DNA of 64,000 nucleotides from Candidatus Aminicenantes bacterium. Lineage in GTDB: Bacteria > Acidobacteriota > Aminicenantia > Aminicenantales > Aminicenantaceae. Positions 12,660-47,620 of the stretch are shown here, piece after piece. The DNA is taken from assembly GCA_011773465.1 (NCBI GenBank), contig WVXO01000060.1, positions 34,047 to 98,046 of the forward strand, written 5' to 3'. A program made the translations under genes and the position numbers. Numbering within the stretch: position 1 is the stretch's first letter; every line of letters starts with the position of its first letter. The notes below the pieces were generated by a model. It worked only from the letters and a program-made list of their open reading frames with translations. It had not been told where the DNA came from and searched no databases.

Positions 12660-12680
12660 AAGGAATAAAAAAGGAAAAAA

Positions 12681-15859: not shown

Positions 15860-15888
15860 TTGACAACGGATATTATCTTCCCTATATT
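15860..15888 (+). promoter_or_regulatory. Sigma70-type promoter of the dcw cluster (Pmra-like)
   Basis: TTGACA (15860-15865), a 17-nt spacer, then TATATT (15883-15888), about 28 nt upstream of the mraZ ATG. Confidence 0.7.
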
Positions 15889-15896
15889 TTACAAAA

Positions 15897-15921
15897 TGGG
15901 ACAAAACGGGACAAAATGGGA
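15897..15921 (+). promoter_or_regulatory. Putative MraZ operator: three direct GGGA repeats with 10-bp phasing
   Basis: TGGGAcaaaaCGGGAcaaaaTGGGA lies just downstream of the -10 box. E. coli MraZ binds phased TGGGN direct repeats at its own promoter. Confidence 0.6.
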
Positions 15922-17570: not shown

Positions 17571-17587
17571 CTTAAGAAAAAAAATTT

Positions 17588-19339
17588 ATGAGCAGCTTCT
17601 ATCAGAAAAAAGCGCGAATAAGAATTATCACTCTGGGCTCTTTCTTTATGATCTGGTTAGTCGGACTCACAATTCGCCTTATTCAGCTCCAAGTTTTTGA
17701 ACATCCCCGCCTGAAAACAGAGACTCTCGAACAAAATCAAAACAGGAATACTATCCATCCTAAAAGAGGAACGATTTACGATTGCACGGGCAACATTCTA
17801 GCACGGAGCCTCCCAATCCAGTCCGTCTTTTTTTCTCCTTTCAAAGGAGAACCCTCTCATCTTCAACTCGAAAAAATAAAGAAGCTTAAGAAAACTTTAG
17901 GCCTATCCCAGAACGAGCTTCAGAATATATATAAAAGAATAGAAAAAAATTCTTCTTTTATCTGGATAAAAAGAAAAATTGACCCAGAAGAAGAAAAAAA
18001 AGTGAAGAGACTCTCTCTGAGCGGCGTTTATTTTTTGGAGGAAAACAAAAGGTTCTACCCTCACGGAAAGCTCGCCGCCCATCTCCTGGGAAGAGTAAAC
18101 ATTGACGATGTAGGTGCCAGCGGGATCGAGTACAAATACAATTCAGTATTAGAAGGAAAAAAGGGAGAACATCTTATCCTGAGAGACGCCAAAAAGAGAG
18201 AGTACCGCTTTGAGATTCTGAAAGAGCCAGAAGCAGGCAAAGACTTAATCCTGACAATAGACGAAACCGTACAGTATTACGCAGAAAAAGAGCTGGAAAG
18301 AGTTATGCATAAAACTGAAGCGAACTGGGGAACAGTTATCATTTCTCAACCTGCAACAGGAGAAATCCTGGCTATGGCGAATTATCCAACATGCGACCTT
18401 AATAATCCTCCTCTGATGCCGCTCTCACTCGATAGAAATAGAGCTATCCACTACAATTTCGAACCCGGGTCCACTTTTAAGATCGTCACGGCTTCGGCAG
18501 CCCTGGAAGCAAGAAAAGTAAACCTCACCGATTCCTTTGACTGCAGCAAAGGATTCATACGGATTGCAGGGAAGACAATCCGAGACCATGAACTATTTGG
18601 AGTTCTCTCTTTTCCTGAAGTCATCATCCATTCTTCAAATGTAGGGACAATTCAATTCGGCCAATCCATAGGAGAAGAAATATTCTTCGAGACGATAAAA
18701 GCCTTTGGTTTCGGCGAAAAGACAGGAATTGACCTCCCTGCTGAAGAAAAGGGGATTTTCAGGCCGCTCGATAACTGGACCAAAATTTCCGCTGCCTCCC
18801 TTTCCATTGGCTACGAAATCTCGGTAACAGCAATCCAGCTTCTCCAAGCGATAAACGCTATTGCCAACAAAGGTTTCATCATCAGCCCAAGGGTTGTTAA
18901 AAAAATCCTGAGCTCCCCCGACGAGGCGATGGAAAAGCCTTATAGGAGAAGAAGGATAATATCAGAAAGAACAGCCTTAGTATTAACCTCTATTCTTCAA
19001 AAGGCTATCCAAAGAGGAACAGGGATTACCGCCCGAGTCGAAGGTTATAATGTTGCCGGGAAGACTGGAACAGCCCAGAAATTCGATCCTTCCATCGGTG
19101 GCTATTCCTCCACCGTTCATATCTCCTCTTTTGCCGGTTTTGTCCCTGCCGACAATCCTGCTCTCTCCATGGTTGTAGTTATTGATGAAGCCAAAGGTCC
19201 ATATTCCGGAGGAGAAGTCGCCGCTCCCCTCTTCCGGGAGATCGCCAGCCTGGTTCTCCGCTATCTTCGCATTCCCAAACAAGAAAAGCATCTAAATACT
19301 ATTATCGCCAAACGCCACATGAGGCAGGTCGAAAGATGA
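17588..19339 (+). CDS. ftsI: Peptidoglycan D,D-transpeptidase FtsI (class B PBP)
   Basis: N-terminal TM helix and the SxxK (STFK), SxN (SSN) and KTG(T) motifs. Confidence 0.9.
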   Translation: MSSFYQKKARIRIITLGSFFMIWLVGLTIRLIQLQVFEHPRLKTETLEQNQNRNTIHPKRGTIYDCTGNILARSLPIQSVFFSPFKGEPSHLQLEKIKKLKKTLGLSQNELQNIYKRIEKNSSFIWIKRKIDPEEEKKVKRLSLSGVYFLEENKRFYPHGKLAAHLLGRVNIDDVGASGIEYKYNSVLEGKKGEHLILRDAKKREYRFEILKEPEAGKDLILTIDETVQYYAEKELERVMHKTEANWGTVIISQPATGEILAMANYPTCDLNNPPLMPLSLDRNRAIHYNFEPGSTFKIVTASAALEARKVNLTDSFDCSKGFIRIAGKTIRDHELFGVLSFPEVIIHSSNVGTIQFGQSIGEEIFFETIKAFGFGEKTGIDLPAEEKGIFRPLDNWTKISAASLSIGYEISVTAIQLLQAINAIANKGFIISPRVVKKILSSPDEAMEKPYRRRRIISERTALVLTSILQKAIQRGTGITARVEGYNVAGKTGTAQKFDPSIGGYSSTVHISSFAGFVPADNPALSMVVVIDEAKGPYSGGEVAAPLFREIASLVLRYLRIPKQEKHLNTIIAKRHMRQVER

Positions 19340-20802
19340 AACTCAAAGACTTGCTCGAAGGAGTTCCGGGTGTACTCTTTAACGGGAACGAGGAAGAAGA
19401 AATTCAAGGAATTGCCTATTCATCAAAAGATGTTCAGCCGGGCTTTCTGTTTGCCGCTTTAAAAGGAGAGAAAAAAGATGGCGTTGAATTTATTGAAGAA
19501 GCTGTCCTCAACGGTGCCGTTGTCTTTCTTTCAGAAAAGCCGAAACCAACAAATTTCGAGAAAACCTGGCTTCAAGCCTCCGACGCACGAGAAGCACTCG
19601 CCCTGTGTTCAGCAAATTTTTATTCTCATCCCTCACAAAAAATGAAAGTTGTCGGCGTCACAGGAACAAAAGGAAAAACCACAATCACTTACTTGCTCGA
19701 GGAAATACTAAAAGAATCTCATTTCCTTCCCGCAGTGATCGGGACAATATCCTACAGGAGTCCCAGTATAAAAATCTCCGCCGAAAGAACCACTCCCGAA
19801 GCGCCTTATCTGCAGAGAATGCTGGCGGAAATGCTTGCACAAGGAGTGACACACTGTCTGATTGAAGTCTCCTCTCATGCCCTGGAACTCAAGAGGGTCC
19901 TGGGCATTGGATTTGATATTGCCCTTTTCTCAAACTTAAGCGGTGAGCATCTGGACTACCATCACACAATGCAAAAGTATTTCGAAGCCAAAAAAAAGCT
20001 TTTCTTCCTCAACCATAAAAAAATAACGGCAGTAATCAACTCCGATGATCCGTGGGGAAAAAAACTGATATCAGAGCTTCCCTCAGGAGTCGTCACTTAT
20101 GGCCTCGAGCCAGGCGCACACGTGATGGGCAAAAATTTCAAACTCCTTGAAAGAGGAATAGAGCTTTCGGTTAAACATCCAGCAGGAGAGCTCCTTGTTT
20201 TCTCGCCTCTTCTGGGTAAGCCTAACCTCTACAATATCCTGGCCTCGATTGCCGTGGCTCTAAAACTGAATATAGCTGTATCAGCGATAAAAGAAGGCAT
20301 AGCCTCACTTCAACAGATACCAGGAAGGTTTGAGAATATAAAAAATTCGCTCGGACTCCATATCTTTGTTGATTATGCCCATACTGATGATGCCCTCAAG
20401 AATTTACTGGAAACTGTTCACGGGCTAAATCCCAGGCGCATCATTTTAGTCTTCGGAGCTGGTGGAGACCGAGACAAAGCGAAAAGACCAAGGATGGGAG
20501 AAGTTGCCGGAAACCTTTCTGACTGGACTATTCTCACCTCTGATAATCCCCGATCTGAAGACCCCATGGCTATAATCTCGGATATAGAAAAAGGTATCAA
20601 GAAAACCGGGACTAAGAATTATGAGATTCTGCCAGATAGAAAAGAAGCCATCGAACGTGCTCTATCCCTTGGAGAAAAAGGAGATTACATCCTTGTTGCC
20701 GGAAAAGGACACGAAGACTACCAGATCATCAAGGATAAAGTCATTCCTTTCAAGGATGCCGATGTCATAAGAAGCATTCTTGAAATAAAGGAGTCAGCCT
20801 GA
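19336..20802 (+). CDS. murE: UDP-MurNAc-L-Ala-D-Glu:meso-diaminopimelate ligase
   Basis: GVTGTKGKTT P-loop and the DNPR motif (TSDNPRSEDP) typical of DAP-adding MurE. Confidence 0.9.
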   Translation: MKLKDLLEGVPGVLFNGNEEEEIQGIAYSSKDVQPGFLFAALKGEKKDGVEFIEEAVLNGAVVFLSEKPKPTNFEKTWLQASDAREALALCSANFYSHPSQKMKVVGVTGTKGKTTITYLLEEILKESHFLPAVIGTISYRSPSIKISAERTTPEAPYLQRMLAEMLAQGVTHCLIEVSSHALELKRVLGIGFDIALFSNLSGEHLDYHHTMQKYFEAKKKLFFLNHKKITAVINSDDPWGKKLISELPSGVVTYGLEPGAHVMGKNFKLLERGIELSVKHPAGELLVFSPLLGKPNLYNILASIAVALKLNIAVSAIKEGIASLQQIPGRFENIKNSLGLHIFVDYAHTDDALKNLLETVHGLNPRRIILVFGAGGDRDKAKRPRMGEVAGNLSDWTILTSDNPRSEDPMAIISDIEKGIKKTGTKNYEILPDRKEAIERALSLGEKGDYILVAGKGHEDYQIIKDKVIPFKDADVIRSILEIKESA

Positions 20803-32876: not shown

Positions 32877-32924
32877 AAGAAGAATTGAAACTCCTTTTCC
32901 TCAACCTCCTTCTTTTACATACCT

Positions 32925-33063
32925 GGGGTCAGGCCTTGCTATTGGAGAGAAAAACTTTTAGCCATCGACTTTTCAAGCTTCATTTAGATAAGGTCTGACC
33001 CCACTCTCCCCTATTCCCTTCTTTTTTCCTTACAACCTCATCTGTATATACTTATCAATGAGG
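32925..33063 (+). repeat. Copy 1 of a 139-nt repeat (78-bp family C-like TIR core plus a 61-nt tail)
   Basis: GGGGTCAGGCCTT...AAGGTCTGACCCC core at 32925-33002. By manual alignment, the whole 139 nt matches 48148-48296 with about six mismatches. Confidence 0.9.
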
Positions 33064-33155
33064 TGACGGTGATAAGCTTGAATTCAAACATAAGATATGA
33101 TATGCAAATAATAGAAGATAACAAATTAAAAATATTTAAATAATAAGTATTATCC

Positions 33156-34427
33156 ATGATTCCCATAGAGAATTTGGCGAGGTTAACATCTAAAATTTCA
33201 GCCCCATTCTTAGATCGAACACTCAAAGCTCTGTCCTCAAATAAAAAAATTAATAATTTTTTAAAGAGATTAGAAATTCAACACCTTCACAAAATATATA
33301 AGCCAAAAAGAGTATTAATTATTCCTGATATCAACATTGGTGATGCAATTATCACCCAATCGTTCATATCTCCACTAAAGTATTATTTTCCAGACATGGA
33401 AATCAGTTATGTCTATCAACGCAAAGCTTATCCTCTAATTAAAGAAAATCCTAATATAGATAGACATTTTCCGTTGTTCAGAAATCTCGGCTATCCTTCT
33501 AAAAGAGATCGCAAAATTTTAGAAAACGTAATTGAAAGATATGATTTCGACATAATCTTTAATTTTTGCCCTTATTTCCCTGCTAACAATTTTAAATCCG
33601 CCAATTCACCAGTTATCAATCCAATAAGATTTATAGCTAATATTATTCGGGATTACGCTTCAGATGGCCGCAAAGCTCAGATTGCTTTTCAAATGAATAA
33701 ATTCGCTAAAGAATTGATAGAGGAATTTCCTTCTGATATTAAACCTAAAAATAAACCAAAGACAAAATTTTCCGAAAATCATCTTTTTACAACTCAACAA
33801 CTTTACAAAAAAACAAGAAAAATAATGGATAAATTAAACATAAATCCGCATGCGAGAAAGATTCTGTTTAATCCCGATACTGCTTCCCCTTACACATTAA
33901 TTCCCCTTAAATTTCAATTAGAACTGTTAAAAGGAATTTTATCAAACAACAAGCTTACCCTTCTTCTGAATTGTGGATTTATTTTTAAAGGCATTGAAAA
34001 AAAGCTTCTCAATGGAATTCCCTCATCTCTTCGGAAAAAAATTGTTGTCATTCCCAGGGATATACCCATCGATGTCTATGCTGCCTTAATCGATAATTCT
34101 AATATGTTTATCACTGGAGATACAGGCCCTTTACATATTGCTGCAGCAAAAAAAATTATTGTGAATTCTGATAACCATTTTAGAAATTCTACTGCCGTGA
34201 TTGGAATATTTGGAGCAACAAGTGCAAAAATCTATGGCTATGATTCTTTTTCCGATGAATATTTATCAGCATCGCAAACTGCTCCCTCAAAGGCATTTGA
34301 AGCGTTTCCAGCCTGTAAAAATCTTACATGTATCGATAAGATATTTAAAAAGTGCCCGAAAGTGAGGTGTTTTGATGGGTTGGAATCTGAACAAGTTATT
34401 GACTACGTCCAAAATTATTTATCTTAA
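33156..34427 (+). CDS. Glycosyltransferase family 9 (heptosyltransferase-like)
   Basis: INIGDAIITQSFISPLK near the N-terminus and GDTGPLHIAAA near the C-terminus, as in GT9 enzymes. The gene is very AT-rich. Confidence 0.65.
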   Translation: MIPIENLARLTSKISAPFLDRTLKALSSNKKINNFLKRLEIQHLHKIYKPKRVLIIPDINIGDAIITQSFISPLKYYFPDMEISYVYQRKAYPLIKENPNIDRHFPLFRNLGYPSKRDRKILENVIERYDFDIIFNFCPYFPANNFKSANSPVINPIRFIANIIRDYASDGRKAQIAFQMNKFAKELIEEFPSDIKPKNKPKTKFSENHLFTTQQLYKKTRKIMDKLNINPHARKILFNPDTASPYTLIPLKFQLELLKGILSNNKLTLLLNCGFIFKGIEKKLLNGIPSSLRKKIVVIPRDIPIDVYAALIDNSNMFITGDTGPLHIAAAKKIIVNSDNHFRNSTAVIGIFGATSAKIYGYDSFSDEYLSASQTAPSKAFEAFPACKNLTCIDKIFKKCPKVRCFDGLESEQVIDYVQNYLS

Positions 34428-34453
34428 GAGCTTTAGCTCACCCAAGAAATTCA

Positions 34454-35086
34454 TCATTTATTTTTTCTGAGGCCTTCTAATACATAATAAAAAATTGGCA
34501 GAATAAGGAGGAAAATGGTCAGGAAAATTGTTCTACCTTTTCCAAATTGTTCAATAAATTCATAAAGCTCATCAAACCATAATGTCCAGGAGATGATCCC
34601 AACCCACATCGAAGGGATAGTTATTAAAAACGTTTCTCTGGTATTGTATCCCTCTAAATGGGCGATATAGGAACCTATAACCGCTCCTGTCCAGGGCAAA
34701 GGTATCCACACAAAAAGAGAAAGGCCGAACCAATTCCATTTTTTAAATAGTCGCTTTTTATTTTTGGCCTTATTCTTTATAGATTCAATATAATTTCTGA
34801 TAAATTTTAATTTCTTAACTCGTTCATAGAAAAAAATAAAAATTGAATACATCAGTAAAAGATAGGTGGTATTGTAAAAGATTATGATGGGAATGATGAG
34901 ATAAGAAGAAAGCCCGTTTTCAAGCCCAACCGCGACGAAAGCAAGTCTTCCCCCCAGATGATTAGCTGCCACCATTGACAAAATTTTTGTGGCAAAAGAA
35001 GAGTTCACGATCAGCCAAAAAGTAAAAAAGACAAGCTCAATTCCCAGAAGTGCAATCCCCACTATGATAGTCGCTTGCTTTTTCAT
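34454..35086 (-). CDS. Integral membrane protein, hypothetical (possibly COG2426 / small-export-like)
   Basis: Five or six predicted TM helices with a basic central loop. AT-rich. The family assignment is uncertain. Confidence 0.5.
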   Translation of the reverse strand: MKKQATIIVGIALLGIELVFFTFWLIVNSSFATKILSMVAANHLGGRLAFVAVGLENGLSSYLIIPIIIFYNTTYLLLMYSIFIFFYERVKKLKFIRNYIESIKNKAKNKKRLFKKWNWFGLSLFVWIPLPWTGAVIGSYIAHLEGYNTRETFLITIPSMWVGIISWTLWFDELYEFIEQFGKGRTIFLTIFLLILPIFYYVLEGLRKNK

Positions 35087-35150
35087 CTAAATAACGGAAA
35101 AAATATTATTAGCTTTAAAACTTAACGAATCTGAAAGATGCAAAACAAAG

Positions 35151-36848
35151 TTAATCCATATAACCCAAGCTGCGCAGCTTCTTCTTTATTTTTTTCTCTT
35201 CCTTAGAATTTTGGACAATCCTTGAAGAGCTTCCTTTCAGGGCTTCATGGATTATATAAGATAAATATTCTTCGCCGGATTGGAATTCGGTATCCTCGAT
35301 TCTCCTCTTAATCTCCTTCATTATTCCCTCAGGCAATTCTAAGGTAACTTTTTCTTTCTTAGTTGACTGTTTTTCATTTTTTTCATTTTTCATATCTGAA
35401 AATTCCCCTTTGACCAAATTATCATCATCTAATCTTCCTCTTTTTCTTAATCTGAAAATGCCTCCCTTGATAAAATCTTTCTGTTTTTTGCTGTTTAAAC
35501 TTTTTATTAAATCATTAAGTTCTTTTTTCATTTCATCAGCTATAATTTTGCTCTCAACAGCGATATTAACCTTTTCTTCGGGATCAACCTCTAGATTATA
35601 TAACTCCTTTTCTCCCCCGTGTACCTGCTGGCAATAATTGCACATGCCAACACCATCAGGGCTAAAAATATACTTAAATTTTTTTGTTCTAATGCCAATC
35701 TTTCTCTGCACATATGATTCCTCATTGAATGCGTAATGACGTATTTCAGTTTTCTTTCCTCTAATCAAAGGCATCAAACTAGCTCCATCTAATCCATAAT
35801 CTTTGTATTTGATATTCAAGAGCTCATATAGAGTCGGCGCTAAATCTATGTGCTGGATTAACCCTTTCACTCTTCTCGGCCCAGAAAAGGCTTTAGGATA
35901 ATTAAGGATCAAAGGGACATGTGTAGTCACATCATAAAGACCGTGATGATCAAAAAAAATATCGTGCTCTATCAAACTCTCCCCATGGTCTGAAGTAATA
36001 ATAATCAGCGTGTCTTCCAGAAATCTTTCTTCTCTTAACACATCGAATAATCTGCCGATTTGCTGGTCAACATATCTCACCGCTCCATTGTATTTTGATA
36101 TGAATACTTCCTTGGAAGTCATGTGGCGCTTTTTCTTTTCAAAAAAATTTCTGGGACAGTTGTACGGGGTGTGTGTATCCCAATAATGGAGAAAAAGAAA
36201 AAAGTTTTCTTTTCTTGGCCTTTTGATCAATTCCTTGGCGAGCTCTGTAACTAAACGCGCATCCTGAATTCTTGCCAGCTTAAAAGAAAATAAAAATGTT
36301 CGAAATATGTCTTTTAATCCTTTCCACAAAGCGGGTGCGGTAAAACCTCTCTTTTTTGAGTAAATTCTTAGTAATCCAAGATGGGCAACTATATATTTTA
36401 AATGGACATAGGGAAGAGTAAAAATATAATAAATGAGCTTTCTTAATAAATTTCTTTTTGGGGTATAACCATAATAATCAAATCCTCTTTTAAACCATCT
36501 AGCCATCCAATCAACTGCGAGGGTCTCATATCCGTTCTCCTGCAAAACCTGAGATAGCAATCTTACATTCAAGGTCTCAAACGCGTTTAGATCTTCAGGT
36601 TTTACCTTATAACCGTGGTGGACAATCCCGTGGGTTCTTGGATATCTTCCCGAAAGAATAGCAGTTAAACTTTGATCTGTCGTATTCCAGCTACAATAGA
36701 CATTTTCAAAAAGAACACCTTTATCCGCAATTTTATCGATGTTTGGACTTGAATCCCTATCTCTTCCGTAGCAACCTAAATTTCTTGCACGAAGAGCATC
36801 GACGACAATCAGAATGATATTCGGATATCTATGCTTATTTTTTTCCAC
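35151..36848 (-). CDS. Sulfatase-like (alkaline-phosphatase superfamily) hydrolase/transferase with a C-terminal extension
   Basis: PNIILIVVDALRARNLGCYG metal-site N-terminus and SDHGE. TTDQS replaces the C/S-x-P-x-R formylglycine motif. The C-terminal ~110 aa is charged, with an RHH-like segment and an LRSLGY end. Confidence 0.7.
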   Translation of the reverse strand: MEKNKHRYPNIILIVVDALRARNLGCYGRDRDSSPNIDKIADKGVLFENVYCSWNTTDQSLTAILSGRYPRTHGIVHHGYKVKPEDLNAFETLNVRLLSQVLQENGYETLAVDWMARWFKRGFDYYGYTPKRNLLRKLIYYIFTLPYVHLKYIVAHLGLLRIYSKKRGFTAPALWKGLKDIFRTFLFSFKLARIQDARLVTELAKELIKRPRKENFFLFLHYWDTHTPYNCPRNFFEKKKRHMTSKEVFISKYNGAVRYVDQQIGRLFDVLREERFLEDTLIIITSDHGESLIEHDIFFDHHGLYDVTTHVPLILNYPKAFSGPRRVKGLIQHIDLAPTLYELLNIKYKDYGLDGASLMPLIRGKKTEIRHYAFNEESYVQRKIGIRTKKFKYIFSPDGVGMCNYCQQVHGGEKELYNLEVDPEEKVNIAVESKIIADEMKKELNDLIKSLNSKKQKDFIKGGIFRLRKRGRLDDDNLVKGEFSDMKNEKNEKQSTKKEKVTLELPEGIMKEIKRRIEDTEFQSGEEYLSYIIHEALKGSSSRIVQNSKEEKKIKKKLRSLGYMD

Positions 36849-37045
36849 TGTATCTATACGTAAGAGATATATATTTATTTTCTTGGCGAGTAATGAATAT
36901 TAGCATTTTTACATTATTCCACTTCATTTGCTTTTTAGAACTTATAACAAGGGAAAGTAGCTAAGTCAAATGATGGAGCAAGTTATACTTAAAAAATGCA
37001 GGAGATAATGCTTGGTAATTTAAATTTCAGAAACATCCTATATTT

Positions 37046-38476
37046 TCAATAATAATCTGCAAATGACTCTAGTTTTTCGCTCCGGTTAGGATGCTTTAAT
37101 TTTCTCAAGGCTTTTGCTTCGATCTGCCTGATTCTCTCACGAGTAACTTTGAATTGATCCCCGATTTCTTCCAGGGTATGCTCATTGCCATCACCTAATC
37201 CAAATCGCATCTTTAGAACTTTTGCCTCTCTCTCTGGGATAGTTTTTAGCACATCTTCAATTTGCTCTATCATATTGATATGAATGACTGTATCGGGAGG
37301 CGAAGGGATATCCTCATCTTCGATGAAATCACTCAGTCGACTGTCTTCCTCTTCTCCAACGGGGGTTTCAAGAGAGATGGGTTCCTGGGCGAATTTTATG
37401 ATCTTTCTTACTTTGCTAACGGGTATTCCCATTTTACCGGATATCTCTTTGCAAGTTGGTTCTCTACCTTTTTCCTTTACAAGAGTTCTCGATATCCTTG
37501 TTAGTTTGTTAATAGTTTCTACCATATGCACCGGGATTCTTATTATCCGTGATTTATCAGCTATGGATCGTATTATAGCTTGTCTAATCCACCAGGTGGC
37601 ATAAGTTGAAAATTTATATCCCTGTCGATATTCAAATTTATCCACGGCTCTCATCAGACCTATGTTTCCTTCCTGGATTAAATCAGAAAACGGGACTCCG
37701 CGGTGGCTGTATTTCTTAGCTATGGAAATTACAAGTCTTAGGTTGGCTACTGTGAGATCTTTTTTTGCTTGATCGCGGATTTTTTTTGCCGTAGCGATAA
37801 CTCTAAGAATTTTTCTTAAACCTCGAGAATTAAGGCCGATTTCTCTCTGGTGTTTCCTCAAGAGCTTATTGATTTCTTGCACTTTGCGTTTCAGCTCAGT
37901 CTTTTTCTTTTTGCCCCGGGCCTGTTTTAGCGCTCTATTCAGATCTTTCTTGACCTCTTCAAATTCGTTGATGACTTTTAATCTTTCCCGGAGATTGTCA
38001 ATGATTTTTTCCCATCGGGCTTGTCCAATAATAATTTCCCTGATAAGGCGGCTCATTCTGATGATAAAACGCCCGCGGGCAAAAGAGTATTTCTTTGTTG
38101 AAGGGATACTCTCTAATTGAGAACTTAGATCTCTGATCTTCCTGATTCTGGCCAGAATGTGATTCTTTTTTTCTTCAAGCCTTCTCTCTGTAATTTCATC
38201 TTCGCTGAAATCGAACATTCCATGGATGACTTCAAGACCCTCCTTTATCTTCTCTTCTAGAGAGAAAACTTCATTGAGGGCAAGCCGTGTATTAGATAGA
38301 GCTATGATAATATCCTTCTCACTTTTTTCGATCTGCTTTGCTATGGCTATTTCTCCCTCGCGACTAAGCAGCGAGATATTGCCCATCTCTTTTAGATAGA
38401 GCTTTACTGGGTCTGTTGTTCGACCTAAACTCCCGAGTTTGAAGGTTTCGTTTTTTTTTCTTTTTGGACTAATCAT
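37046..38476 (-). CDS. rpoD: RNA polymerase sigma factor RpoD-type, regions 1.2-4 (downstream part of an interrupted gene)
   Basis: Region 1.2 ([12 protein letters not shown]), region 2 ([13 protein letters not shown]), region 3, and region 4 ([27 protein letters not shown]). Confidence 0.9.
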
Positions 38477-38479
38477 ATT

Positions 38480-38641
38480 TCATTTATAGAGAATTTTGAT
38501 CCCATGGCTATCAATAGAGTTGATGAATTCATTAAAGTTTTTTCCATCGTCCACGCTATCCTTAAATGTCTTGTCTATTTTTTCAAAAAGAATATATCCT
38601 TGCTTTTTTCCTTTAGAAAAGAGCTGATGAATTTTGTCCAT
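38480..38641 (-). CDS. 53-codon ORF encoding sigma70 region 1.1, ending in an in-frame TGA one codon before the rpoD ATG
   Basis: MDKIHQLFSKGKKQGYILFEKIDKTF...FINSIDSHGIKI parallels E. coli RpoD LVTRGKEQGYLTYAEVNDHL...MINDMGIQV. It is in the same frame as 37046-38476. Confidence 0.7.
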   Translation of the reverse strand: MDKIHQLFSKGKKQGYILFEKIDKTFKDSVDDGKNFNEFINSIDSHGIKILYK

Positions 38642-38722
38642 TTTCTTTATTCATGACATACTTTTATCTTTTATTATTTTCTTCCCTAAAACTGTCACCT
38701 TTCGTTTTTTACACATATGTTT

Positions 38723-39157
38723 CTATCTTTTCCATTTAGAAATTAACTCATTACTATATTCAAACGTTGCTTTTACAGCCTGTTTCTTCGTCAATCCATC
38801 CTTGAGTCCTTTTGCTATATGCTTCCTCAAGATAGCATGCAACATATCAATATTGCTCTCATTCTCATTCATTGTTTTTTTTATAACCTCCTTTTCCACT
38901 TCGTTGGACTGTTTAAGGACTAATCTCAAGTAGGGTTTATCGACTACAGCCAAGTAACAGATATCACATACAAAATTGAAGACCTCTCTTGTCGCCTTGT
39001 TAAATTTTCTGTCTTTCTTTTTCCCTTCGGGCAGACGATTAAGGACCTCTTTGGATATATTAGATTTCACATCTTCCCATAAATCCCTTAAAAACTCTTC
39101 AAGGCTATAATCTACCTTACCCTCTGTCACTTGCGCTGGTGTAAATTTCCGTTTCAT
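38723..39157 (-). CDS. Hypothetical protein
   Basis: 144-aa helical, charged ORF, co-directional with rpoD. I recognise no family. Confidence 0.45.
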   Translation of the reverse strand: MKRKFTPAQVTEGKVDYSLEEFLRDLWEDVKSNISKEVLNRLPEGKKKDRKFNKATREVFNFVCDICYLAVVDKPYLRLVLKQSNEVEKEVIKKTMNENESNIDMLHAILRKHIAKGLKDGLTKKQAVKATFEYSNELISKWKR

Positions 39158-39326
39158 CCTTTTAAAGCCTCCTTATATTTCAATTTCCATTGAAAAGGTC
39201 TTTCTCGCTCTTTAGAGATCTAAAGCGAAAAATCGCAGCCTAAGCTGTAACCGACTCCTGTGTAAAATGCATTACCTAAAATATGCTAATCCTCTGTCAT
39301 AATTCATAAACAAATCTCTAAACAAA

Positions 39327-39788
39327 TTATTCCTCTTTACTAGGAGCTCGAATAGTAAGTATGGGAGTGGAGGCAATCCGCACTACTTTCTCAGCAACTG
39401 ATCCCAAAAAGAAACGCCGCCGGCCAGTGGTACCTTGAGTTGCAATAACAATAAGCTCAACATTTTCTCTTTTGGCAATTCGAGTGATTTCAACAGCTGC
39501 ATCTCCAATGGTAACAAGAGCACGCACTTTCAGTCTTTCTCCAATCTTTTTATCAATCACTTCCTGAAGCGATTTTTCTGCGGAAGATCGGAGCTCTTTC
39601 CTATACAACGATACGTTAAAACTTGGCCGGTCTCGCGGAGTTTCTACAAGAGGGGGCATTGGCGTGACAACATGAACGAGATATAGCTCGGAAGAAAAAT
39701 GCAAGGCTAATTCTTTCGCTGTTTTAAACGCCTCATAGGATGGCTCACTAAAATCGGTTGGCCAAAGAATTTTCTTAAAAGTAATCAT
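39327..39788 (-). CDS. Universal stress protein (UspA family)
   Basis: USP fold with the ATP-binding motif GTTGRRRFFLGSVAEKV. Confidence 0.85.
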   Translation of the reverse strand: MITFKKILWPTDFSEPSYEAFKTAKELALHFSSELYLVHVVTPMPPLVETPRDRPSFNVSLYRKELRSSAEKSLQEVIDKKIGERLKVRALVTIGDAAVEITRIAKRENVELIVIATQGTTGRRRFFLGSVAEKVVRIASTPILTIRAPSKEE

Positions 39789-39814
39789 TTTCGCTTTTTT
39801 TATATGAACGATAT

Positions 39815-40246
39815 TCAGACTATCTCTACAAGCTCTAGGTCAAAATAAAGCAACTTTCCCGCAAGCGGATGATTGGCATCCAATCTAATTGATTTATCAA
39901 GGATCTCAGCTACAACAACCGGGATTGCTTTCCCCTGTCTATTGACAAGCTGAAGCGGCATACCTTTTTCAGGAGAAATATCCTCAGGAATTCTTTCTTT
40001 CGGCATTTCCATCAGAAGCTTTTTATTATAATTACCATAACCTTCTTCGGGATTAACAGTAACGCTTTTCCTCTCCCCAGGCTTCATACCCAGCACGGCT
40101 TTCTCTAATCCCTTTATAATCTCTTCGGTTCCAACCTTAAACTGAAGCGGCTCTCGACCTTCCGAGGAATCAAATACTTCACCATCATCAAACCGTCCGG
40201 TGTAATGAACCTTGACTGTATCTCCAGTTTTTACTGTTTGTGTCAT
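39815..40246 (-). CDS. FKBP-type peptidyl-prolyl isomerase (SlyD-like, short form)
   Basis: VKVHYTGRFDDGEVFDSS, with an IF-insert-like middle and NHPLAGKLLYFDLELV at the end. Confidence 0.85.
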   Translation of the reverse strand: MTQTVKTGDTVKVHYTGRFDDGEVFDSSEGREPLQFKVGTEEIIKGLEKAVLGMKPGERKSVTVNPEEGYGNYNKKLLMEMPKERIPEDISPEKGMPLQLVNRQGKAIPVVVAEILDKSIRLDANHPLAGKLLYFDLELVEIV

Positions 40247-40278
40247 AATAGACCTCCTTAAAAATAACTTTACCTCTA

Positions 40279-40362
40279 TTACACAAATGAAACAGGGGAT
40301 TTTGTTCTGAATTAAAGGAATTTAATTCTCATTGTTTATAATTATTACATATTATGAGTGGA
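40279..40362 (-). promoter_or_regulatory. Conserved upstream element, copy A (sigma32-like promoter candidate)
   Basis: The minus strand reads ...aaattcCTTTAAttcagaacaaaatCCCCTGTTtc... about 48 nt upstream of the FKBP ATG. About 75 nt is shared with 47969-48062. Confidence 0.45.
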
Positions 40363-40477
40363 GAAGCAAATTTTAAAATAAAATGCGATTTCTTGGTTCA
40401 AATTCAGCTGGTTTGTACTGAAATTATGATATAAGGATCGAAAGGATAATTCCCACAGGGAAAACCGGGGTAATCTT

Positions 40478-42694
40478 TTATTTCTGAATTCTAACTAACT
40501 TATGGAGCAAACTCCTGGTTAATTGGGAGGACTCCAAATAGAACCTGGCTTGAGACGGTCCATAGCTTACTTTTATCGAATAAGCCTTTGCTGGTAATAT
40601 TTTAAATAAATCTTCATCAGTCCAATCATCTCCCAAGGCAAGAATAAAATCCCACTTCTTCTCAGAAAGCCAAGGCATTACACCATCACCTTTGTTTATT
40701 CCAGAAACCCTCACCTCAATAACTTTATTGCCGTGCATCACCTGAAGATCTGTATTAGCCAGAAACTCATTTAAGTAATCAAATAATTCACTAGATCTGA
40801 GTTGACCTAATTCTGGATTAGCCTTTCGATAATGCCAGGCAATTCCATATTCTTTTTCTTCCATCAGAGAACCTGGAACACGAAATTCATAAGTCTTGAG
40901 AATAGGCTTTAATTGTTCCTTCCAATCACCGGATATACTCTTTTGCTTTTCCCAGTCATGACGAGGGTCTCTTTTAATCCAGGCACCATGTTCAGCAACC
41001 AGACCACAAGGTACCTTTCCCAGCCAGTGCTCTATTGTTGTCCGGTCCCGTCCGCTAACAATAACCAAGGTATTGTGAGGATCCTTGCCTAGTGAAAAAA
41101 GAAGCCGTTTTAATCCTACATCTGGTTTTGCCTGCTCCGGCTTCATTGCAAAAGAAACTAATGTGCCATCATAATCCAGGAATAAAAGTCGATTCTTGCT
41201 TTTTTTGAAATCAGATATGAGTTTTTTCTCCCACTTTACATTAAGCTTTCGATGTTCACGTTGAGACTGAATTTTTTTAACATCTTTAGTTCTCTGGACA
41301 AAACTTCTGGCCCAGTGCAGCACATCATATTCAAAAAGCCGCTTTCTCATCAATTTCATCCCTCTCGCCTGTTCTTCTTCACTCATATCAAGAGCCTGAG
41401 TTAACGCTGAGGCAATGTCTTCTTTATTATTCACATTAACAAGTAAGGCTTCTCCCAGTTCAGAGGCAGCCCCAGCTGTCTCGCTGAGCACAAGCACACC
41501 CCTATTATCTTTTTTAGAAGCAACGTATTCTTTAGCAACCAAATTCATACCATCGCGTAAGGGAGTAACGAGAGCAACATCGGCTATAGTATAGAGGGGC
41601 AAAAGTTTATTAAAAGGAAGAGAACGATACATATAATGAACAGGAATCCAACCCGGCATACCAAACCGGCCGTTAATTCTTCCGACCAGGGAATCAACTT
41701 CCTCCTTGAGAAGAGAATAATGCTTAACTTTAGTCCTCGAGGGAACACATAACATGACATAAGTAAACCGGCCGTGCCACTCGGGTTTTTTTTCTAAAAA
41801 CAACTCAATGCCTTTTAATCTTTGAGGGATTCCTTTTGTATAATCCAAGCGATCAACAGAAAGAATGATCTTTCTCTTCTCTGTCCATATTTTTTCTTCA
41901 AGCTTTTTGATTTCTTTCTGTATTGAAGACTCCTCCAGAAGACTTTTCAGGCCTAGGGAATCGATCCCCATAGGAAAATTCTCTACCTTCACAATCCTGT
42001 TGTCCACCTGGATTGCTCCAAACTCGTGTTCATATCCTAATAATAGCAGCACGCTGTTTAAAAAGTGCTGGGCATATTCATAGGTATGAAAACCTATTAG
42101 GTCAGCTCCAAGGAAACCTTCGAGAATCTCCTGGCGCCAGGGCAGTACGCGAAATATCTCAGAAGAAGGAAAAGGGATATGCAGAAAAAAACCAATTGAA
42201 CTTTGAGGTAAACTTTTTCTGATAAGAGCAGGAAGAAGCATAAGATGATAATCATGAATCCAGAAGGTATCCTGTGGATCGGCTAAATCGAAAACCTTCT
42301 GAAAAAATCTTTGATTCACTTTTTTGTAAGCAATCCACTCTGACTCTTCATAAGCACAATAGGTTGAAAAATAATGAAAAAGAGGCCAGAGAGTTCTGTT
42401 TGCAAAACCATAATAATATTTTCCAATCTCTGCTGGAGAAATAAAGACAGGATAGCTCTTGCAGTAATTTATGAGCTCGTTCTCAATTGATCTTTTTTCT
42501 TTATCATTTGCAGGCCAATAGCCAGGCCAACCGACAAAAATTGCCTTTTCCTCCTCTTGAATGGCCCGGAGACAAGTCGCCAATCCTCCTGGACTCTGTT
42601 GAATTTTCAGCTCGTCTTTCCTTTTGCTTATCGTTACAGGCAGTCTATTAGAAACAATAATGATTTTACCTTTCGATTTTTTATTTCCCTTCAT
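40478..42694 (-). CDS. Bifunctional trehalose-6-phosphate synthase / trehalose-6-phosphate phosphatase (OtsA-OtsB fusion)
   Basis: GT20 N-terminus (IIVSNRLPV, full-length OtsA-like) fused to a HAD phosphatase ([10 protein letters not shown] ... [10 protein letters not shown]). Confidence 0.9.
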
Positions 42695-42973
42695 GACGAA
42701 TTTTTAGGGGCAATTTATCTCTATTCTACTCTTTAATAGAAATAACATCAAATCAACTCAAAAAGACGTAAGCATCTTTATTTCCGTTATTAGAAAAGCT
42801 TTTGGAGATGCTTGCCGAATAGACTGTCTCTCTTTTTTCTACTTTCCTCATTAGCGGTTAATAGTGCTAGTTTGTAAGACATAATTTGAAAATAAATAAA
42901 TCAAAGAAAAATTTGGCCTTAAATATTTCCCCTGAGAAGGAATAAATTGGGAAAGAAGAAAGGATCAGTAATA

Positions 42974-44188
42974 TTAATAATTATCAAAGATGTCTATAAA
43001 AAGTGTCAAATAATCACTTATATGCCTTGTCACAAGGAAATTATTTCTCATGAATTCTTTTCCTTCTCTTCCCATTTTTTTGGCGAGTTTCTTATCCTTG
43101 AGGAGAGTAACCACTTTATCAGCACATCCAGCAAAATCATAAGGGTCTACTAGGAATCCTGTTTTATTATTGATAACCTGCTCTGGAATTCCTCCTATTT
43201 TCGAGGCAACAACAGGGGTTCCCTTCCATTGAGCCTCAGCAACCGATAAGCCAAAGCCCTCCCTTGTGGATTTTTGAAGTATGACCGAAGACTTTCGCTG
43301 CAGAGCATTTACTAAAATTTGATTATCTCCTAAAACAAATAAAACATCTCCATTTTCCAAGTGCTTTCTGGCTTTCTTTTCTATCTTATTGTAGATGATT
43401 ATTCCTTCGGGATCATCGGAGGCCATGTTATAGCAATAAACGAGACGGCTATCCACCTTCTCTTTTACAATTTCAAACACTCTTAATACTCCCTCTGGAT
43501 CTTTCCAGGGATCAAAGCGAGAAACCTGCGTTATGAGGGGCTTATCCGTTGGAATATCAAACTTCTTAAGGACCTTTGAAATAGTATCATCTGATATATC
43601 CATGTTTTTGGGAGAAAGAGGGTCAATCGAAGGATGAATAACTCGTTGTTCAAGGAAAAGATCATTCTTCTTGAAACGCTTACTTGAAATAATCATCATG
43701 TCATAACGGAGTATAAAGGGCTTGATATAACTCCATAATTCCTTGTTGGGTTCAGTGAGATCGATATGACACCGCCAAATCCACGGCTGTTTTTTTCTGT
43801 GAAATTTAATCAGAGGGAGGGGTTGAGGGTCGTGGGCTACGACACAATTATGATCCAGATGAGTAAATTTGGAAAACCTCTCATTTGTATCCAAATAGAG
43901 ATTTTTTTTGTTAACTGATAAATTAATTTGACCGCCCTGAAGGGCATTGTGAAATTTCTTTGTCACAGAAAAAAAATCTGCTGGCCCTAACAAGACTCTC
44001 CAGCCTGTATCTATTCCAACATCATTCATCAAAAGCACAAGATTGTTTAGTATTTCGGCAACACCCCCTCCCTGGGCAGTGGAATTTATATGGACAATAT
44101 GTTTATTGATCAGGCGGTGAGCTTTTTGATAAATATTCCCTATGGCCTTTTCTCCAACAATAGGAAGATAATCATCCATACTCTTCAT
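42974..44188 (-). CDS. treT: Trehalose glycosyltransferring synthase TreT-like (GT4)
   Basis: HINSTAQGGGVAEIL, FFSVTKKFHNALQG, WIWRCHIDL, ITQVSRFDPWKD and REGFGLSVAEAQWKG closely parallel Pyrococcus/Thermococcus TreT. Confidence 0.85.
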   Translation of the reverse strand: MKSMDDYLPIVGEKAIGNIYQKAHRLINKHIVHINSTAQGGGVAEILNNLVLLMNDVGIDTGWRVLLGPADFFSVTKKFHNALQGGQINLSVNKKNLYLDTNERFSKFTHLDHNCVVAHDPQPLPLIKFHRKKQPWIWRCHIDLTEPNKELWSYIKPFILRYDMMIISSKRFKKNDLFLEQRVIHPSIDPLSPKNMDISDDTISKVLKKFDIPTDKPLITQVSRFDPWKDPEGVLRVFEIVKEKVDSRLVYCYNMASDDPEGIIIYNKIEKKARKHLENGDVLFVLGDNQILVNALQRKSSVILQKSTREGFGLSVAEAQWKGTPVVASKIGGIPEQVINNKTGFLVDPYDFAGCADKVVTLLKDKKLAKKMGREGKEFMRNNFLVTRHISDYLTLFIDIFDNY

Positions 44189-44544
44189 ATGTCTAACCTC
44201 CGATAATAAGCTTCATAAAATATCATTATAGCTGAATTGCAGGACTCTCTTATCATCTATCATCAAATAAATCAGGAGTCAAACCGCCTTTTATCTGGAG
44301 TTTGCCTAAGAGCTATAGACCGAAAAGGCTTCTGTATAAATTTTTAGCGTTGAATTTATGCTTTAAATGCCTTTCCTTTGGCTATAAAGGAACTCTTGAA
44401 TTCCATATACAAAGCATAACAGAGGAAATACTCTCGTCAGTATGATAAAATTTGAACCGTATTAAATAATTTACTTTTTATATTAATTTTTTTGGCAATA
44501 ACAAAATATCAATAATAAAAACGAGTTTAATTTGAGGTTTTAAA

Positions 44545-45696
44545 ATGTTAAATTTTAACTATCTCATTCCGACAGAAATTCTTTTTGGCAAAGAGCAGAT
44601 AAGCAATTTAGAAAGCAAAATTGAAGACTATAATAGGATATTATTCGCTTGGGGTGGGGGGAGTATCAAAAAAAATGGCATCTATGAAAAAGTTATTGAC
44701 TCGTTAAAAAATAAGACATATTTCGAATTGTCTGGGATAAAGCCAAATCCAAGACTCTCAAGTGTAAAAAAAGGGATAAGGATATGCACAGAAGACGACG
44801 TTGATTTTATCTTAGCTGTTGGAGGAGGGAGTGTTATAGACTGCTCTAAAGCAATTGCGGCAGGTGTCTATTATCCAGATGATGTCTGGGACTTATTCAT
44901 GAGAAAAGCAACAGTAGAAAAGGCCCTTCCAATCGGAACTATCTTGACTTTGGCTGCCACAGCTTCTGAAATAAACGCAAGTGCAGTAATCAATAACGAA
45001 GAAACACAACAAAAACTCTCAATAACATCAAACCTTCTAAGACCAAAATTTTCAATACTCGATCCAACATATACGATGACTGTCCCCCGAGCACACACGG
45101 CAGCAGGAGTTGTTGATATAATGAGCCACGTTTTTGAACAATACTTCGATACTACAAAGGGAACATATCTGCAGGATCGGTTAGCTGAAGGTATTTTAAA
45201 GACGTGCATAAAGTATGGACCGATTGTTTTAGAAAATCCAGATGATTATGAAGCAAGAGCAAACGTGATGTGGGCGGGAAGTCTTGCCTTAAGCGGCCTT
45301 TTATCATTCGGCAAAAAAGGAGACTTTGCAACACACAAAATTGAACATGAAGTCAGTGCGATATATGACCTAACACATGGTATTGGTATGGCAATATTGT
45401 TTCCCAATTGGATGAAATACGTAATGCATGAAAATATTGATAAATTTGTAGAATTTGCTCATAACGTGTGGGACATCCCTAATATGGGGGAAAAAAAAGA
45501 TATTGCAAACTTAGGCATACAAAAAACAAGGGAATTTTTCAGCTCTCTAGATATGCCAACAACATTTTTTCAAGTAAACATAAGTTATGAAAAATACGAA
45601 GAGATGGCAACAAAGGCAGTTTATTTTGGCGAAATTGGCAGCTTTAAGAAACTAAAAAAGGAAGATGTCTTAGAAATCTTAAAACTATCCCTTTAA
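44545..45696 (+). CDS. Iron-containing (group III) alcohol dehydrogenase
   Basis: GGGSVIDCSKAIA motif and metal-binding His residues (HKIEHE, THG). 383 aa. Confidence 0.85.
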   Translation: MLNFNYLIPTEILFGKEQISNLESKIEDYNRILFAWGGGSIKKNGIYEKVIDSLKNKTYFELSGIKPNPRLSSVKKGIRICTEDDVDFILAVGGGSVIDCSKAIAAGVYYPDDVWDLFMRKATVEKALPIGTILTLAATASEINASAVINNEETQQKLSITSNLLRPKFSILDPTYTMTVPRAHTAAGVVDIMSHVFEQYFDTTKGTYLQDRLAEGILKTCIKYGPIVLENPDDYEARANVMWAGSLALSGLLSFGKKGDFATHKIEHEVSAIYDLTHGIGMAILFPNWMKYVMHENIDKFVEFAHNVWDIPNMGEKKDIANLGIQKTREFFSSLDMPTTFFQVNISYEKYEEMATKAVYFGEIGSFKKLKKEDVLEILKLSL

Positions 45697-45726
45697 ATTA
45701 AGCGAATCCCTCGCAGGGGCCGCTTC

Positions 45727-46698
45727 TTATAGACCGTTCCTCTTTGCGGCTTCTTCTAGGATCCTTATGGCCAGATAATCGGCTGGCTTGCCTATTTCAC
45801 TGGCCATCTTGGCCATAGGGCTAAATTTCGGATAAATCCCCGGGAGTGTATTTACCTCGAGAATCCAGGGAATCCCTTGTTTATCCAGGCGGATGTCTAC
45901 TCGTGCATAGTCAGTACACCCGATCGAACGATAAGCCCTTGTCGCTACTCTCTTCACAGCTGTCTCCTCTTCCGCTTTCATTTCAGGTACTGTTACGTTA
46001 TATTGCCAGTGGGTGGATTTCTTCTTCATCTTTTCTGTAAAGATTCGAGGTGCTCCTCGGTTAGTGTCGAAATGTTTCTCCAGGATTGGCAGGATTTGTA
46101 ATTTTTTATTGCCGATGATACCAACGGTTATCTCGCGGCCAGGGATGTACTTTGTTATGATTGCTTCCTTGTCTACTGCAAGAGCAGCATCTATTGCTGC
46201 AGGCAGTTCTTCGGCCGACTGGACAAAAGACTCATCTGATACTCCTTCGCTCGCTCCTAAAGAGCAGGGCTTTACCAGGATTGGAAATTCTACCCGCCGA
46301 GATGGCTCCCGTTGTTTTCGATTGACCAAGGCGAATTGAGGCACGGGCAACTTGTCATATCTAAAGATTTTACCCGCCAGCCCCTTATGCATTGCCAGAG
46401 AGTGGCATAAAGCGCTGCAACCAGTGTAAGGCATCCCCATCTTTTCCAAGAGCGCTGGTATGTATGACTGGGCTCTGCCAGGGATTGAGTACCAGTTGAA
46501 CACTATATCTGGCTTGGCTCTTCTGATCTTCGCAAACAGGTTGCCGCGTCCATCAATAGTCACAACCTTGCGATGAGCACGCTCGAATGCCTTGCGCACG
46601 CGGGTAAGAGTGGGGTATAGGAGTTTGCGCCGTGACCCGTGGATTTTATCTTCGGTCGCGCGCATTCGCGTCGGATTGTAAACTATCGCAATCTTCAT
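45727..46698 (-). CDS. ATP-grasp enzyme of the D-alanine--D-alanine ligase family (non-canonical)
   Basis: ATP-grasp core (FPILVKPCSLGASEGV, ARVDIRLD, ILEVNTLPG). The N-terminus differs from canonical Ddl. Confidence 0.65.
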   Translation of the reverse strand: MKIAIVYNPTRMRATEDKIHGSRRKLLYPTLTRVRKAFERAHRKVVTIDGRGNLFAKIRRAKPDIVFNWYSIPGRAQSYIPALLEKMGMPYTGCSALCHSLAMHKGLAGKIFRYDKLPVPQFALVNRKQREPSRRVEFPILVKPCSLGASEGVSDESFVQSAEELPAAIDAALAVDKEAIITKYIPGREITVGIIGNKKLQILPILEKHFDTNRGAPRIFTEKMKKKSTHWQYNVTVPEMKAEEETAVKRVATRAYRSIGCTDYARVDIRLDKQGIPWILEVNTLPGIYPKFSPMAKMASEIGKPADYLAIRILEEAAKRNGL

Positions 46699-46708
46699 GA
46701 TCAGCTTT

Positions 46709-47620
46709 TTACCTTTCTGAGCTCATGATCTTAATCGTCCGAGAATTTTTGCTATGAGGCTCTGAACCGCCCATGGTAAGCACTTCGGCGAATCTCCTGC
46801 GCACCTGGAAGCCTAGGATCTCTTTGGCCTTGCTGCAATCAATAAGACTTTCTTTATCGGAAAGAGGTCTTCTGATTGGCGTTTTAGGAAAATAAGTAGC
46901 CACCAGATTCGGGATATCCGAGTTCGAAAGACAAACATCTTCAGCTGCGATATGGAATACATCATACCCTTTCAGGTCGGACACCAGAGCGCATACAATA
47001 GCGTTAACTGCATCTTCTACATGCACCCAGGCCCACAGGGACTTGCGCCTCGCTGATGGATCTTTTGCGTCAGCCAAATATTTTTGCTCATCCTCAGGAC
47101 AGAAGATGTTCGAAAACCGCAGAGCAATGATGTCTATATCATATCCTTGCGTAAAGCAGCGGCACATCTCCTCTCCGTGCATCTTGCTGATTCCGTAAGG
47201 ATCCTGTGGCTTTAAGGGATGTTTCTCGTCTACGGGCACGTATTCTGGAGCAAACTCATTCACGCTCTGTGCTATTCCAAGAACCGCGTCGCTACTGGAG
47301 AATAACAACTTTTCCACTCCCTCGTTCTGTGCTGTCTCGAGCACGCAGTAAGTTCCTAAAATGTTCGTTGCCATCACCTTCATCGGCAGATGGTTGTAAC
47401 GGGACCGCAGAGCTGCCAGATGTATTATCCTGTCTGCACCTTGAAAAGCCTCGCTAAGTCTAGCCCTATCTGTGATTTTACCCTTCATATATGGGAATTG
47501 ACTCTGCTGTGGGTGCTGTTTATCATAGAGCAAGATCTCATGCTCGCGTGCAAGCACTGGTGCGAGGTACCTGGCCAATTTTCCGCTACCGCCCGTGATA
47601 ACTAGTTTCATCTTTTTCAC
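46709..47620 (-). CDS. NAD-dependent epimerase/dehydratase (extended SDR)
   Basis: ITGGSGKLARYL Rossmann motif and YGISK (YxxxK) catalytic motif. Confidence 0.8.
   Translation of the reverse strand: MKKMKLVITGGSGKLARYLAPVLAREHEILLYDKQHPQQSQFPYMKGKITDRARLSEAFQGADRIIHLAALRSRYNHLPMKVMATNILGTYCVLETAQNEGVEKLLFSSSDAVLGIAQSVNEFAPEYVPVDEKHPLKPQDPYGISKMHGEEMCRCFTQGYDIDIIALRFSNIFCPEDEQKYLADAKDPSARRKSLWAWVHVEDAVNAIVCALVSDLKGYDVFHIAAEDVCLSNSDIPNLVATYFPKTPIRRPLSDKESLIDCSKAKEILGFQVRRRFAEVLTMGGSEPHSKNSRTIKIMSSER

Follow-up and report, generated by a model that had tools for sequence, protein, structure and literature searches.

A probable accessory primary-type sigma factor gene of Candidatus Aminicenantes with an in-frame stop between regions 1.1 and 1.2

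There are a few described systems with which a sigma factor gene in two pieces can be compared. In the bipartite sigma factors SigO-RsoA of B. subtilis and gp55/gp33 of phage T4, two polypeptides are encoded by adjacent genes, each carries an indispensable promoter-binding or core-binding module, and the split is conserved. The group 2 sigma factors, RpoS, HrdA/C/D of Streptomyces, and SigB-E of cyanobacteria, are primary-like, non-essential, and do not contain region 1.1 (PMC4598750). Sigma-70 and sigma-A from which region 1.1 has been removed can still form holoenzyme and initiate; they bind the core enzyme more stably and are not released (PMC12478191). Deletion of region 1.1 also stabilises promoter complexes (PMC7641759). 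The gene described here is a primary-type sigma factor gene on a 64,000-nt stretch of Candidatus Aminicenantes DNA (contig WVXO01000060.1, positions 34,047 to 98,046), hereafter called the window. It is interrupted by one in-frame TGA between the sequences for regions 1.1 and 1.2. The best reading is that it is a paralog of the housekeeping gene rpoD that is either losing region 1.1, and thus becoming group-2-like, or decaying outright.

The two parts are an open reading frame (ORF) of 53 amino acids (aa) and one of 476 aa. According to the ORF listing they share one frame on the minus strand, where the junction reads ...CTC TAT AAA TGA AAT ATG ATT AGT.... The features of the split gene are as follows.

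38641-38654, minus strand: ancestral start ATG (38654-38652, MNKEM...), frameshifted by one additional A; from comparison with intact relatives
38483-38641, minus strand: 53-codon ORF for sigma-70 region 1.1 (MDKIHQ...KILYK); from Pfam PF03979, and aligning with the N-terminus of continuous relatives of 531-538 aa
38480-38482, minus strand: in-frame TGA, ancestral codon CGA (Arg54); from codon comparison of related loci and Arg in the relatives P0001-P0008
38474-38476, minus strand: start codon (ATG) of the 476-aa ORF, located 3 nt past the stop and corresponding to the internal Met56 (KRNM) of the ancestral protein; from the alignment of relatives
37046-38476, minus strand: 476-aa ORF with linker and regions 1.2, 2, 3, and 4, ending in TGA; from Pfam and NCBIfam
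~38413-38324, minus strand: region 1.2 of the 476-aa ORF, Pfam r1.2 above cut-off, followed by the non-conserved region
~37747-37547, minus strand: region 2 of the 476-aa ORF, Pfam r2 above cut-off
~37519-37292, minus strand: region 3 of the 476-aa ORF, Pfam r3 above cut-off
~37252-37091, minus strand: region 4 of the 476-aa ORF, Pfam r4 above cut-off

The domain content is as the first-pass annotation of this DNA had described it. The 53-codon ORF was taken for region 1.1, and it is identified as such by Pfam Sigma70_r1_1 with 33.3 bits (gathering score 22.5) over profile positions 5-54 of 81. The 476-aa ORF was said to carry the linker and regions 1.2 to 4, and the Pfam domains r1.2, r2, r3, and r4 were each found in it. 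These are present at RpoD-level scores, which is a feature of group 1. The ORF scores 373 bits with RpoD_Cterm (TIGR02393, cut-off 354) and 553.4 bits with the NCBIfam RpoD model PRK05658, just below the cut-off of 555. The TGA lies directly after the last helix of region 1.1 and ~20 residues ahead of the region 1.2 motif TTDPVKLYL, so the split was correctly placed between regions 1.1 and 1.2. Another feature of group 1, region 1.1 in the same polypeptide, is absent from the window allele and is present in the intact relatives P0001-P0008.

The likeness to SigO-RsoA and gp55/gp33 consists of adjacent genes for two polypeptides. Unlike those splits, the one in the window is not conserved and detaches only the accessory region 1.1, and regions 1.2, 2, 3, and 4 all remain on the 476-aa ORF. 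The small ORF is region 1.1 only and does not hold an indispensable binding part, as each piece of a bipartite sigma factor does. Group 2 sigma factors offer a different comparison. The 476-aa ORF and its counterparts in two related loci, L001 and L085, are close to a primary sigma factor across regions 1.2-4 and do not contain region 1.1. The window sigma is also located among the stress genes OtsAB, TreT, Usp, and FKBP, on a low-GC (G+C content) island that is described below. Group 2 sigma factors are dispensable, and for the island sigma the same is suggested by its context, its rate of evolution, and four independent lesions. The difference from group 2 is that most members of the island clade keep an intact, constrained region 1.1 and a long non-conserved region. 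Its members resemble a duplicated group 1 sigma from which region 1.1 is lost repeatedly, without the loss having become fixed. The predicted 476-aa product is equivalent to the deletion in the engineered forms of sigma-70 and sigma-A; those are laboratory constructs of a housekeeping sigma, whereas the window gene is a naturally occurring allele, probably that of a paralog.

The related loci indicate in which direction the change took place. The first-pass annotation had suggested looking for the same TGA in them, and it was not found to be conserved. TGA occupies the position in the window and in locus L003 only. Seven other loci have CGA (L002, L087, L084, L001, L112, L085, and L086) and two have AGA (L113 and L114). 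At the protein level, eight relatives with 79-92% identity (P0001-P0008) are uninterrupted over 531-538 aa and have Arg in the column of the stop (…YKRNM…). The names given to homologs of the protein agree with an Aminicenantes-type member of the Acidobacteriota. With arginine codons in nine related loci, the stop is thus a single C>T transition that is private to this population. The Met at the start column of the 476-aa ORF is common to most intact relatives. Its ATG is therefore an ancestral Met codon and was not acquired for restarting translation.

The same allele possesses a second private lesion, which was overlooked in the first pass. In the A-run at 38644-38641, one A is inserted in the window and in L003, and in no relative. 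At the 5' end, intact relatives all read ATGAATAAAG-AAATGGAC, and the window and L003 read ATGAATAAAGAAAATGGAC. The reading frame of the ancestral ATG is now a 13-codon ORF out of frame with region 1.1, whose start it overlaps. The unique TGA, the pre-existing ATG, this second lesion at the 5' end, and unrelated deletions of region 1.1 in sister populations are together not what a selected arrangement would be expected to show. The best explanation of the split is a recent lesion specific to this lineage, and not an evolved two-piece architecture.

The TGA itself appears to be real. L003 is a Logan assembly of run ERR2564001 and is the same as the window at 1890 of 1891 bp, TGA included, although it may share reads with the window. 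Because the TGA recurs in a second assembly, it was not created by a single assembler, and the base-call error that had been listed among the possible explanations is unlikely. TGA is also a genuine stop in this DNA, as was claimed earlier: it terminates 15 of the 48 ORFs of the window, and ftsZ, which ends in TGA, has the length of its homologs. The dcw genes had been described as intact, and this was confirmed from murF to ftsZ, which have full-length matches in a complete genome of a relative. A reassigned TGA codon was also considered; it is ruled out by the 15 ORFs that end in TGA and by Arg at the site in relatives. The RNA 3' of the TGA folds no differently from shuffled sequence (z = -0.01), with no selenocysteine insertion sequence (SECIS) or read-through element. 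No tRNA and no Rfam family were found in the 64-kb window with a tRNA scan and an Rfam scan. A promoter and terminator scan gave fewer matches than in shuffled sequence and is uninformative.

The window gene is probably not the housekeeping rpoD. Adjacency of dnaG and rpoD is the classical arrangement. It is found for P0071, the rpoD on a 4.07-Mb Aminicenantes contig and the sole canonical copy whose context was read, which lies directly downstream of dnaG. The window sigma resembles this canonical RpoD (P0071, and P0096 in a second complete genome) in the order of regions 1.1, 1.2, non-conserved region, 2, 3, and 4, in the short basic linker PKRKK after region 1.1, and in an overall identity of 67-69%. 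It differs in being island-borne and without dnaG, and in its regions 2-4, of which region 2.4 is substituted. An ortholog of the housekeeping gene would have dnaG beside it and very high conservation of regions 2-4, and the window sigma has neither. Identity across regions 2-4 is 94-95% between canonical RpoD proteins, ~78% between island sigmas and canonical RpoD, and 78-96% among island sigmas.

The rate of evolution can be compared with that of FtsZ. FtsZ of the window is 78-81% identical to FtsZ of the two complete genomes, which are 80% identical to each other. For the sigma factor, the overall identity is 82% between the two complete genomes and 67-68% between the window and either of them. 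The divergence of FtsZ is thus alike but that of the sigma is greater, which supports paralogy. In the same genome pairs, the ratio of non-synonymous to synonymous substitution rates (dN/dS) is 0.22-0.34 for the sigma, 0.09 for FtsZ, and 0.13-0.17 for OtsAB, and the dN of the sigma is among the highest of the genes in the neighbourhood. In region 2.4 (window ~37550-37620, minus strand), the normally invariant RQAITRAIADQARTIRIP (RQAITR(A/S)IADQARTIRIP) is substituted in the window sigma. The Thr position of this segment is M or I in other island sigmas. Residues that read the -10 element are part of this segment, so the window sigma may prefer other promoters than the housekeeping sigma does. 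Context and evolutionary rate together give the profile of a duplicated, specialised, and less constrained primary-like sigma.

The 476-aa protein has no identical entry in the collection that was searched. Among the matches listed in a GTDB scan with the 476-aa protein, full-length relatives have at most 64% identity, and one match of 72% spans regions 2-4 only. A metagenome scan with the N-terminal 271 aa gave 27 confirmed loci, of which five belong to the island clade (L084-L087, 70-91% identity). Three contigs are in both the FtsZ and the RpoD match lists (4.07 Mb, 4.43 Mb, and 97,207 bp); these are from distant genomes and none has the island. From the context and rate of the island gene, it is inferred that a dnaG-linked housekeeping rpoD is present elsewhere in this genome.

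Sister populations have lesions of their own in this sigma gene. In L001, the source of a 476-aa protein (P0009), a ~130-bp deletion between short similar sequences has removed the N-terminal half of region 1.1 together with the start. The sigma of L001 is left starting at the same Met as the 476-aa ORF of the window. In L085/L086, the upstream ORF is fused to the final third of region 1.1 by a larger deletion, the frame is shifted by the loss of 1 nt, and the ORF resumes at this same Met. Thus all three region 1.1 lesions (window, L001, and L085/L086) spare the same Met-initiated ORF. L087, the closest relative of the window, has region 1.1 intact and an in-frame deletion of ~866 bp that removes regions 1.2 to 3. 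This deletion, at ~2930-2946 of L087, joins window position 38196 to 37330, and its ends are two 17-nt near-identical direct repeats (GATTTCA[G/T]CGAAGATGA).

The sigma is missing from the site in another population. In L116 (GCA_964435925.1, CAYTBG010000002.1, positions 10435-20435), the island matches the window from 50669 to 38698 with 88-91% nucleotide identity. The shared stretch ends 25 nt past the ORF that lies upstream of the sigma, and YfiO-like, SnoaL, HTH, PC4, and SSF-transporter genes follow. No sigma, sigma remnant, or sulfatase was found at this site; the sigma may lie elsewhere in that metagenome-assembled genome (MAG). The site can represent either loss of the sigma or a rearrangement, and it is only suggestive of dispensability. 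Another related MAG, GCA_964347175.1, has an intact island sigma. Overall, four or five of the ~14 sampled populations have a broken or missing copy, which is hard to square with a sole essential sigma.

Selection on the two parts of the gene was compared. Clade-wide, both are constrained, with a dN/dS of 0.19-0.49 for region 1.1 and 0.15-0.25 for regions 2-4. Purifying selection on region 1.1 indicates that this region matters where it is present. On the terminal branch of L085 as a whole, regions 2-4 have 24 non-synonymous and 22 synonymous changes (p = 7e-5 against neutrality). The terminal branch of L001 as a whole has 16 and 15 (p = 8e-4 against neutrality). On the window branch, there are seven events in the 54 codons of region 1.1 and 18 in the 477 codons elsewhere (Fisher p = 0.009). 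This clustering fits a region 1.1 that no longer matters in the window lineage.

The junction was also compared with translationally coupled gene pairs. Stop-start gaps of -8 to +10 nt have been treated as predictive of coupling, with a variable loss of efficiency (PMC10666635). Reinitiation at +2 nt entailed a gene-specific loss of 5-70% in native E. coli gene pairs, and in a synthetic operon with +3 nt the loss was ~tenfold (PMC10666635). The gap at UGA-AAU-AUG is 3 nt, which is within the range of a coupled pair, and the context of the junction is A-rich and unstructured. A conserved arrangement is also expected of such pairs, and this stop-start was found only in the window and L003. The spacing makes reinitiation at UGA-AAU-AUG plausible, with no sign that it has been selected. 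No motif like a Shine-Dalgarno (SD) sequence is present in the 20 nt upstream of the 476-aa ATG, AAATTCTCTATAAATGAAAT.

The explanation favoured here with moderate confidence combines an accessory sigma, a recent nonsense lesion, and a 1.1-less ORF that can probably still be translated. One Aminicenantes clade would have an rpoD-derived accessory sigma on its low-GC island of stress and compatible-solute genes. A single C>T turned the conserved Arg54 codon CGA into TGA and severed region 1.1, and in the same allele the additional A disabled the ancestral start codon. Translation of the 476-aa ORF would begin at the ancestral Met56, through either termination-reinitiation or initiation without an SD sequence, and would give a 1.1-less sigma with the architecture of group 2. 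This product may still be made and used. A decaying second copy in the low-GC segment was among the explanations proposed in the first pass, and it is favoured by the context, the faster evolution, the private lesions, and the lesions in sister populations. Several observations weigh against the explanation. Most members of the clade retain an intact region 1.1 under purifying selection. The 476-aa ORF has 12 non-synonymous and 6 synonymous changes on the window branch, which is indistinguishable from neutrality (p = 0.17). Neither ATG is preceded by an SD-like motif, and ~60% of the genes in the window have one. The out-of-frame ancestral start may lower the translation of both ORFs. The lesions in L087 and L116 are seen in metagenome assemblies, where an assembly artefact or a rearrangement could account for them. 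Finally, no dnaG and no other gene of the sigma-70 family were found in the 64-kb window, and a second rpoD was not seen directly.

Some of these observations suit the main rival, a plain pseudogene, in which the nonsense mutation and the start frameshift have silenced the whole gene, both products are functionless, and the 476-aa ORF is intact only because the lesions are recent. Two lesions inside 170 nt, the internal ATG without an SD-like motif, the neutral-looking changes on the window branch, and the apparent dispensability of the whole gene elsewhere (the core deletion of L087, L116 without the sigma) all fit it. It is nevertheless a possible and not a likely explanation, since L001 and L085 keep the 1431-nt ORF intact in DNA of 37% GC with purifying selection, and all three region 1.1 lesions spare this ORF. 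An error is much less probable. In that case, a sequencing or consensus mistake, or a minority allele fixed by the assembler, would hide a continuous gene with CGA. One base separates TGA from CGA, the second lesion is in a homopolymer run, a classic error site, and L003 may come from the same reads. Against this, the two assemblies agree on both lesions over 1891 bp with one unrelated mismatch, the adjacent dcw genes are full-length against the complete genome, and C>T is atypical of systematic error. The free-standing region 1.1 with a 1.1-less sigma that the first-pass annotation put forward is very improbable as a functional two-piece sigma. In it, the 53-aa peptide would be made in a fixed ratio by reinitiation, would modulate the sigma or the holoenzyme in trans, and might be part of the only primary sigma of the cell. 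What stands of this proposal is that it is possible: the stop is exactly at a domain boundary, the start follows 3 nt on, within the range for coupling (PMC10666635), the 53-aa ORF still scores as region 1.1, and a second rpoD was not demonstrated. What does not stand is a selected arrangement. The split is limited to one population, the ATG is older than the stop, the ancestral start is frameshifted in the same allele, substitutions on the window branch are clustered in region 1.1, and sister lineages simply delete the region. Context and evolutionary rate also speak against a sole primary sigma. Least credible of all is programmed recoding of the TGA by read-through, selenocysteine, or reassignment into a continuous 531-aa sigma. 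UGA is the leakiest stop in model bacteria, and a small full-length fraction is likely in any case. Read-through had been offered earlier as an explanation and is unsupported, as the stop is not conserved, relatives encode Arg by CGA or AGA, TGA closes nearly a third of the ORFs of the window, and neither a downstream structure, an Rfam match, nor a tRNA was found. A softer version of the functional reading, more probable than the two-piece sigma but still rather doubtful, is that the repeated independent removal of region 1.1 in this clade is adaptive, and that a transition from group 1 to group 2 has been caught in progress.

The genomic setting of the sigma gene was defined from two further features.

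32900-47600 (right edge approximate), no strand: low-GC segment, the island bearing the sigma paralog; from GC profile, Pfam, and synteny
38723-39157, minus strand: conserved ORF of 144 aa (unk144) directly upstream of the sigma; in the same place in L001, L002, L112, L113, and L117

The GC content is 35-39% in the island (~32 to 46 kb) and 43-47% elsewhere in the window. Its genes, according to Pfam, are GT9, Sm_multidrug_ex, sulfatase, the sigma, unk144, Usp, FKBP, OtsAB, TreT, Fe-ADH, ATP-grasp, and epimerase. Sm_multidrug_ex is a homolog of small export proteins, and trehalose synthesis is represented by an OtsAB fusion and TreT. The order TreT, OtsAB, (FKBP), Usp, ORF of 144-168 aa, sigma, sulfatase, Sm_multidrug_ex, and GT9 is shared by all members of the clade, down to 68% identity, and the gene order of the island is also kept in L002, L112, L113, and L116. 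In L116, the epimerase and ATP-grasp genes are duplicated at 18428-20434. L001 possesses genes for mannosylglycerate synthase and asparagine synthase in place of OtsAB. The window is syntenic with the complete genome CP070825 from murF past ftsZ to an amidohydrolase gene, and the synteny breaks at ~32.9 kb, at the onset of low GC. Neither the island nor the sigma was found in CP070825 after ftsZ and the amidohydrolase gene. The low-GC block looks like a variable compatible-solute island that was inserted beside the end of the dcw cluster.

The upstream ORF, unk144, adjoins the sigma in all island copies. It has 30 homologs, apparently all of this clade: they are on clade-like contigs, and the sole organism name given for them is Candidatus Aminicenantes. 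It has no Pfam match. In relatives the ORF of 144-168 aa is located at 7498-8004 in L113, where it overlaps the start of the sigma by 4 nt, and at 6097-6531 and 12173-12607 in L112. The second copy in L112 is inverted and is paired with a Usp gene. The upstream ORF could encode a partner or regulator of the sigma. Some islands also contain a paralog of rpsU, the gene for ribosomal protein S21 (L116 17572-17787, L117 5039-5254, and L118 5469-5684). The island of the window does not have it, and the spacing of OtsAB and FKBP there is just 230 bp. Normally, rpsU is found in one operon with dnaG and rpoD. Because its paralog is present in some islands, the island sigma may stem from a partial duplicate of the rpsU-dnaG-rpoD operon.

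Taken alone, the split is an ordinary nonsense mutation, and the locus is better annotated as disrupted than as two genes. The locus is of interest instead because a primary sigma that was probably duplicated has repeatedly lost region 1.1 in nature. One clade of Aminicenantes has a second, fast-evolving copy of a primary sigma among the compatible-solute and stress genes of an island. In its natural populations, at least three independent routes to the removal of region 1.1 have been taken, with the remaining ORF apparently kept under selection. Should these genomes prove to have a canonical rpoD as well, the clade would be a natural series on how group 2 sigma factors arise from duplicated primary sigmas. 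It would also inform on the value of region 1.1 to a sigma other than the housekeeping one.

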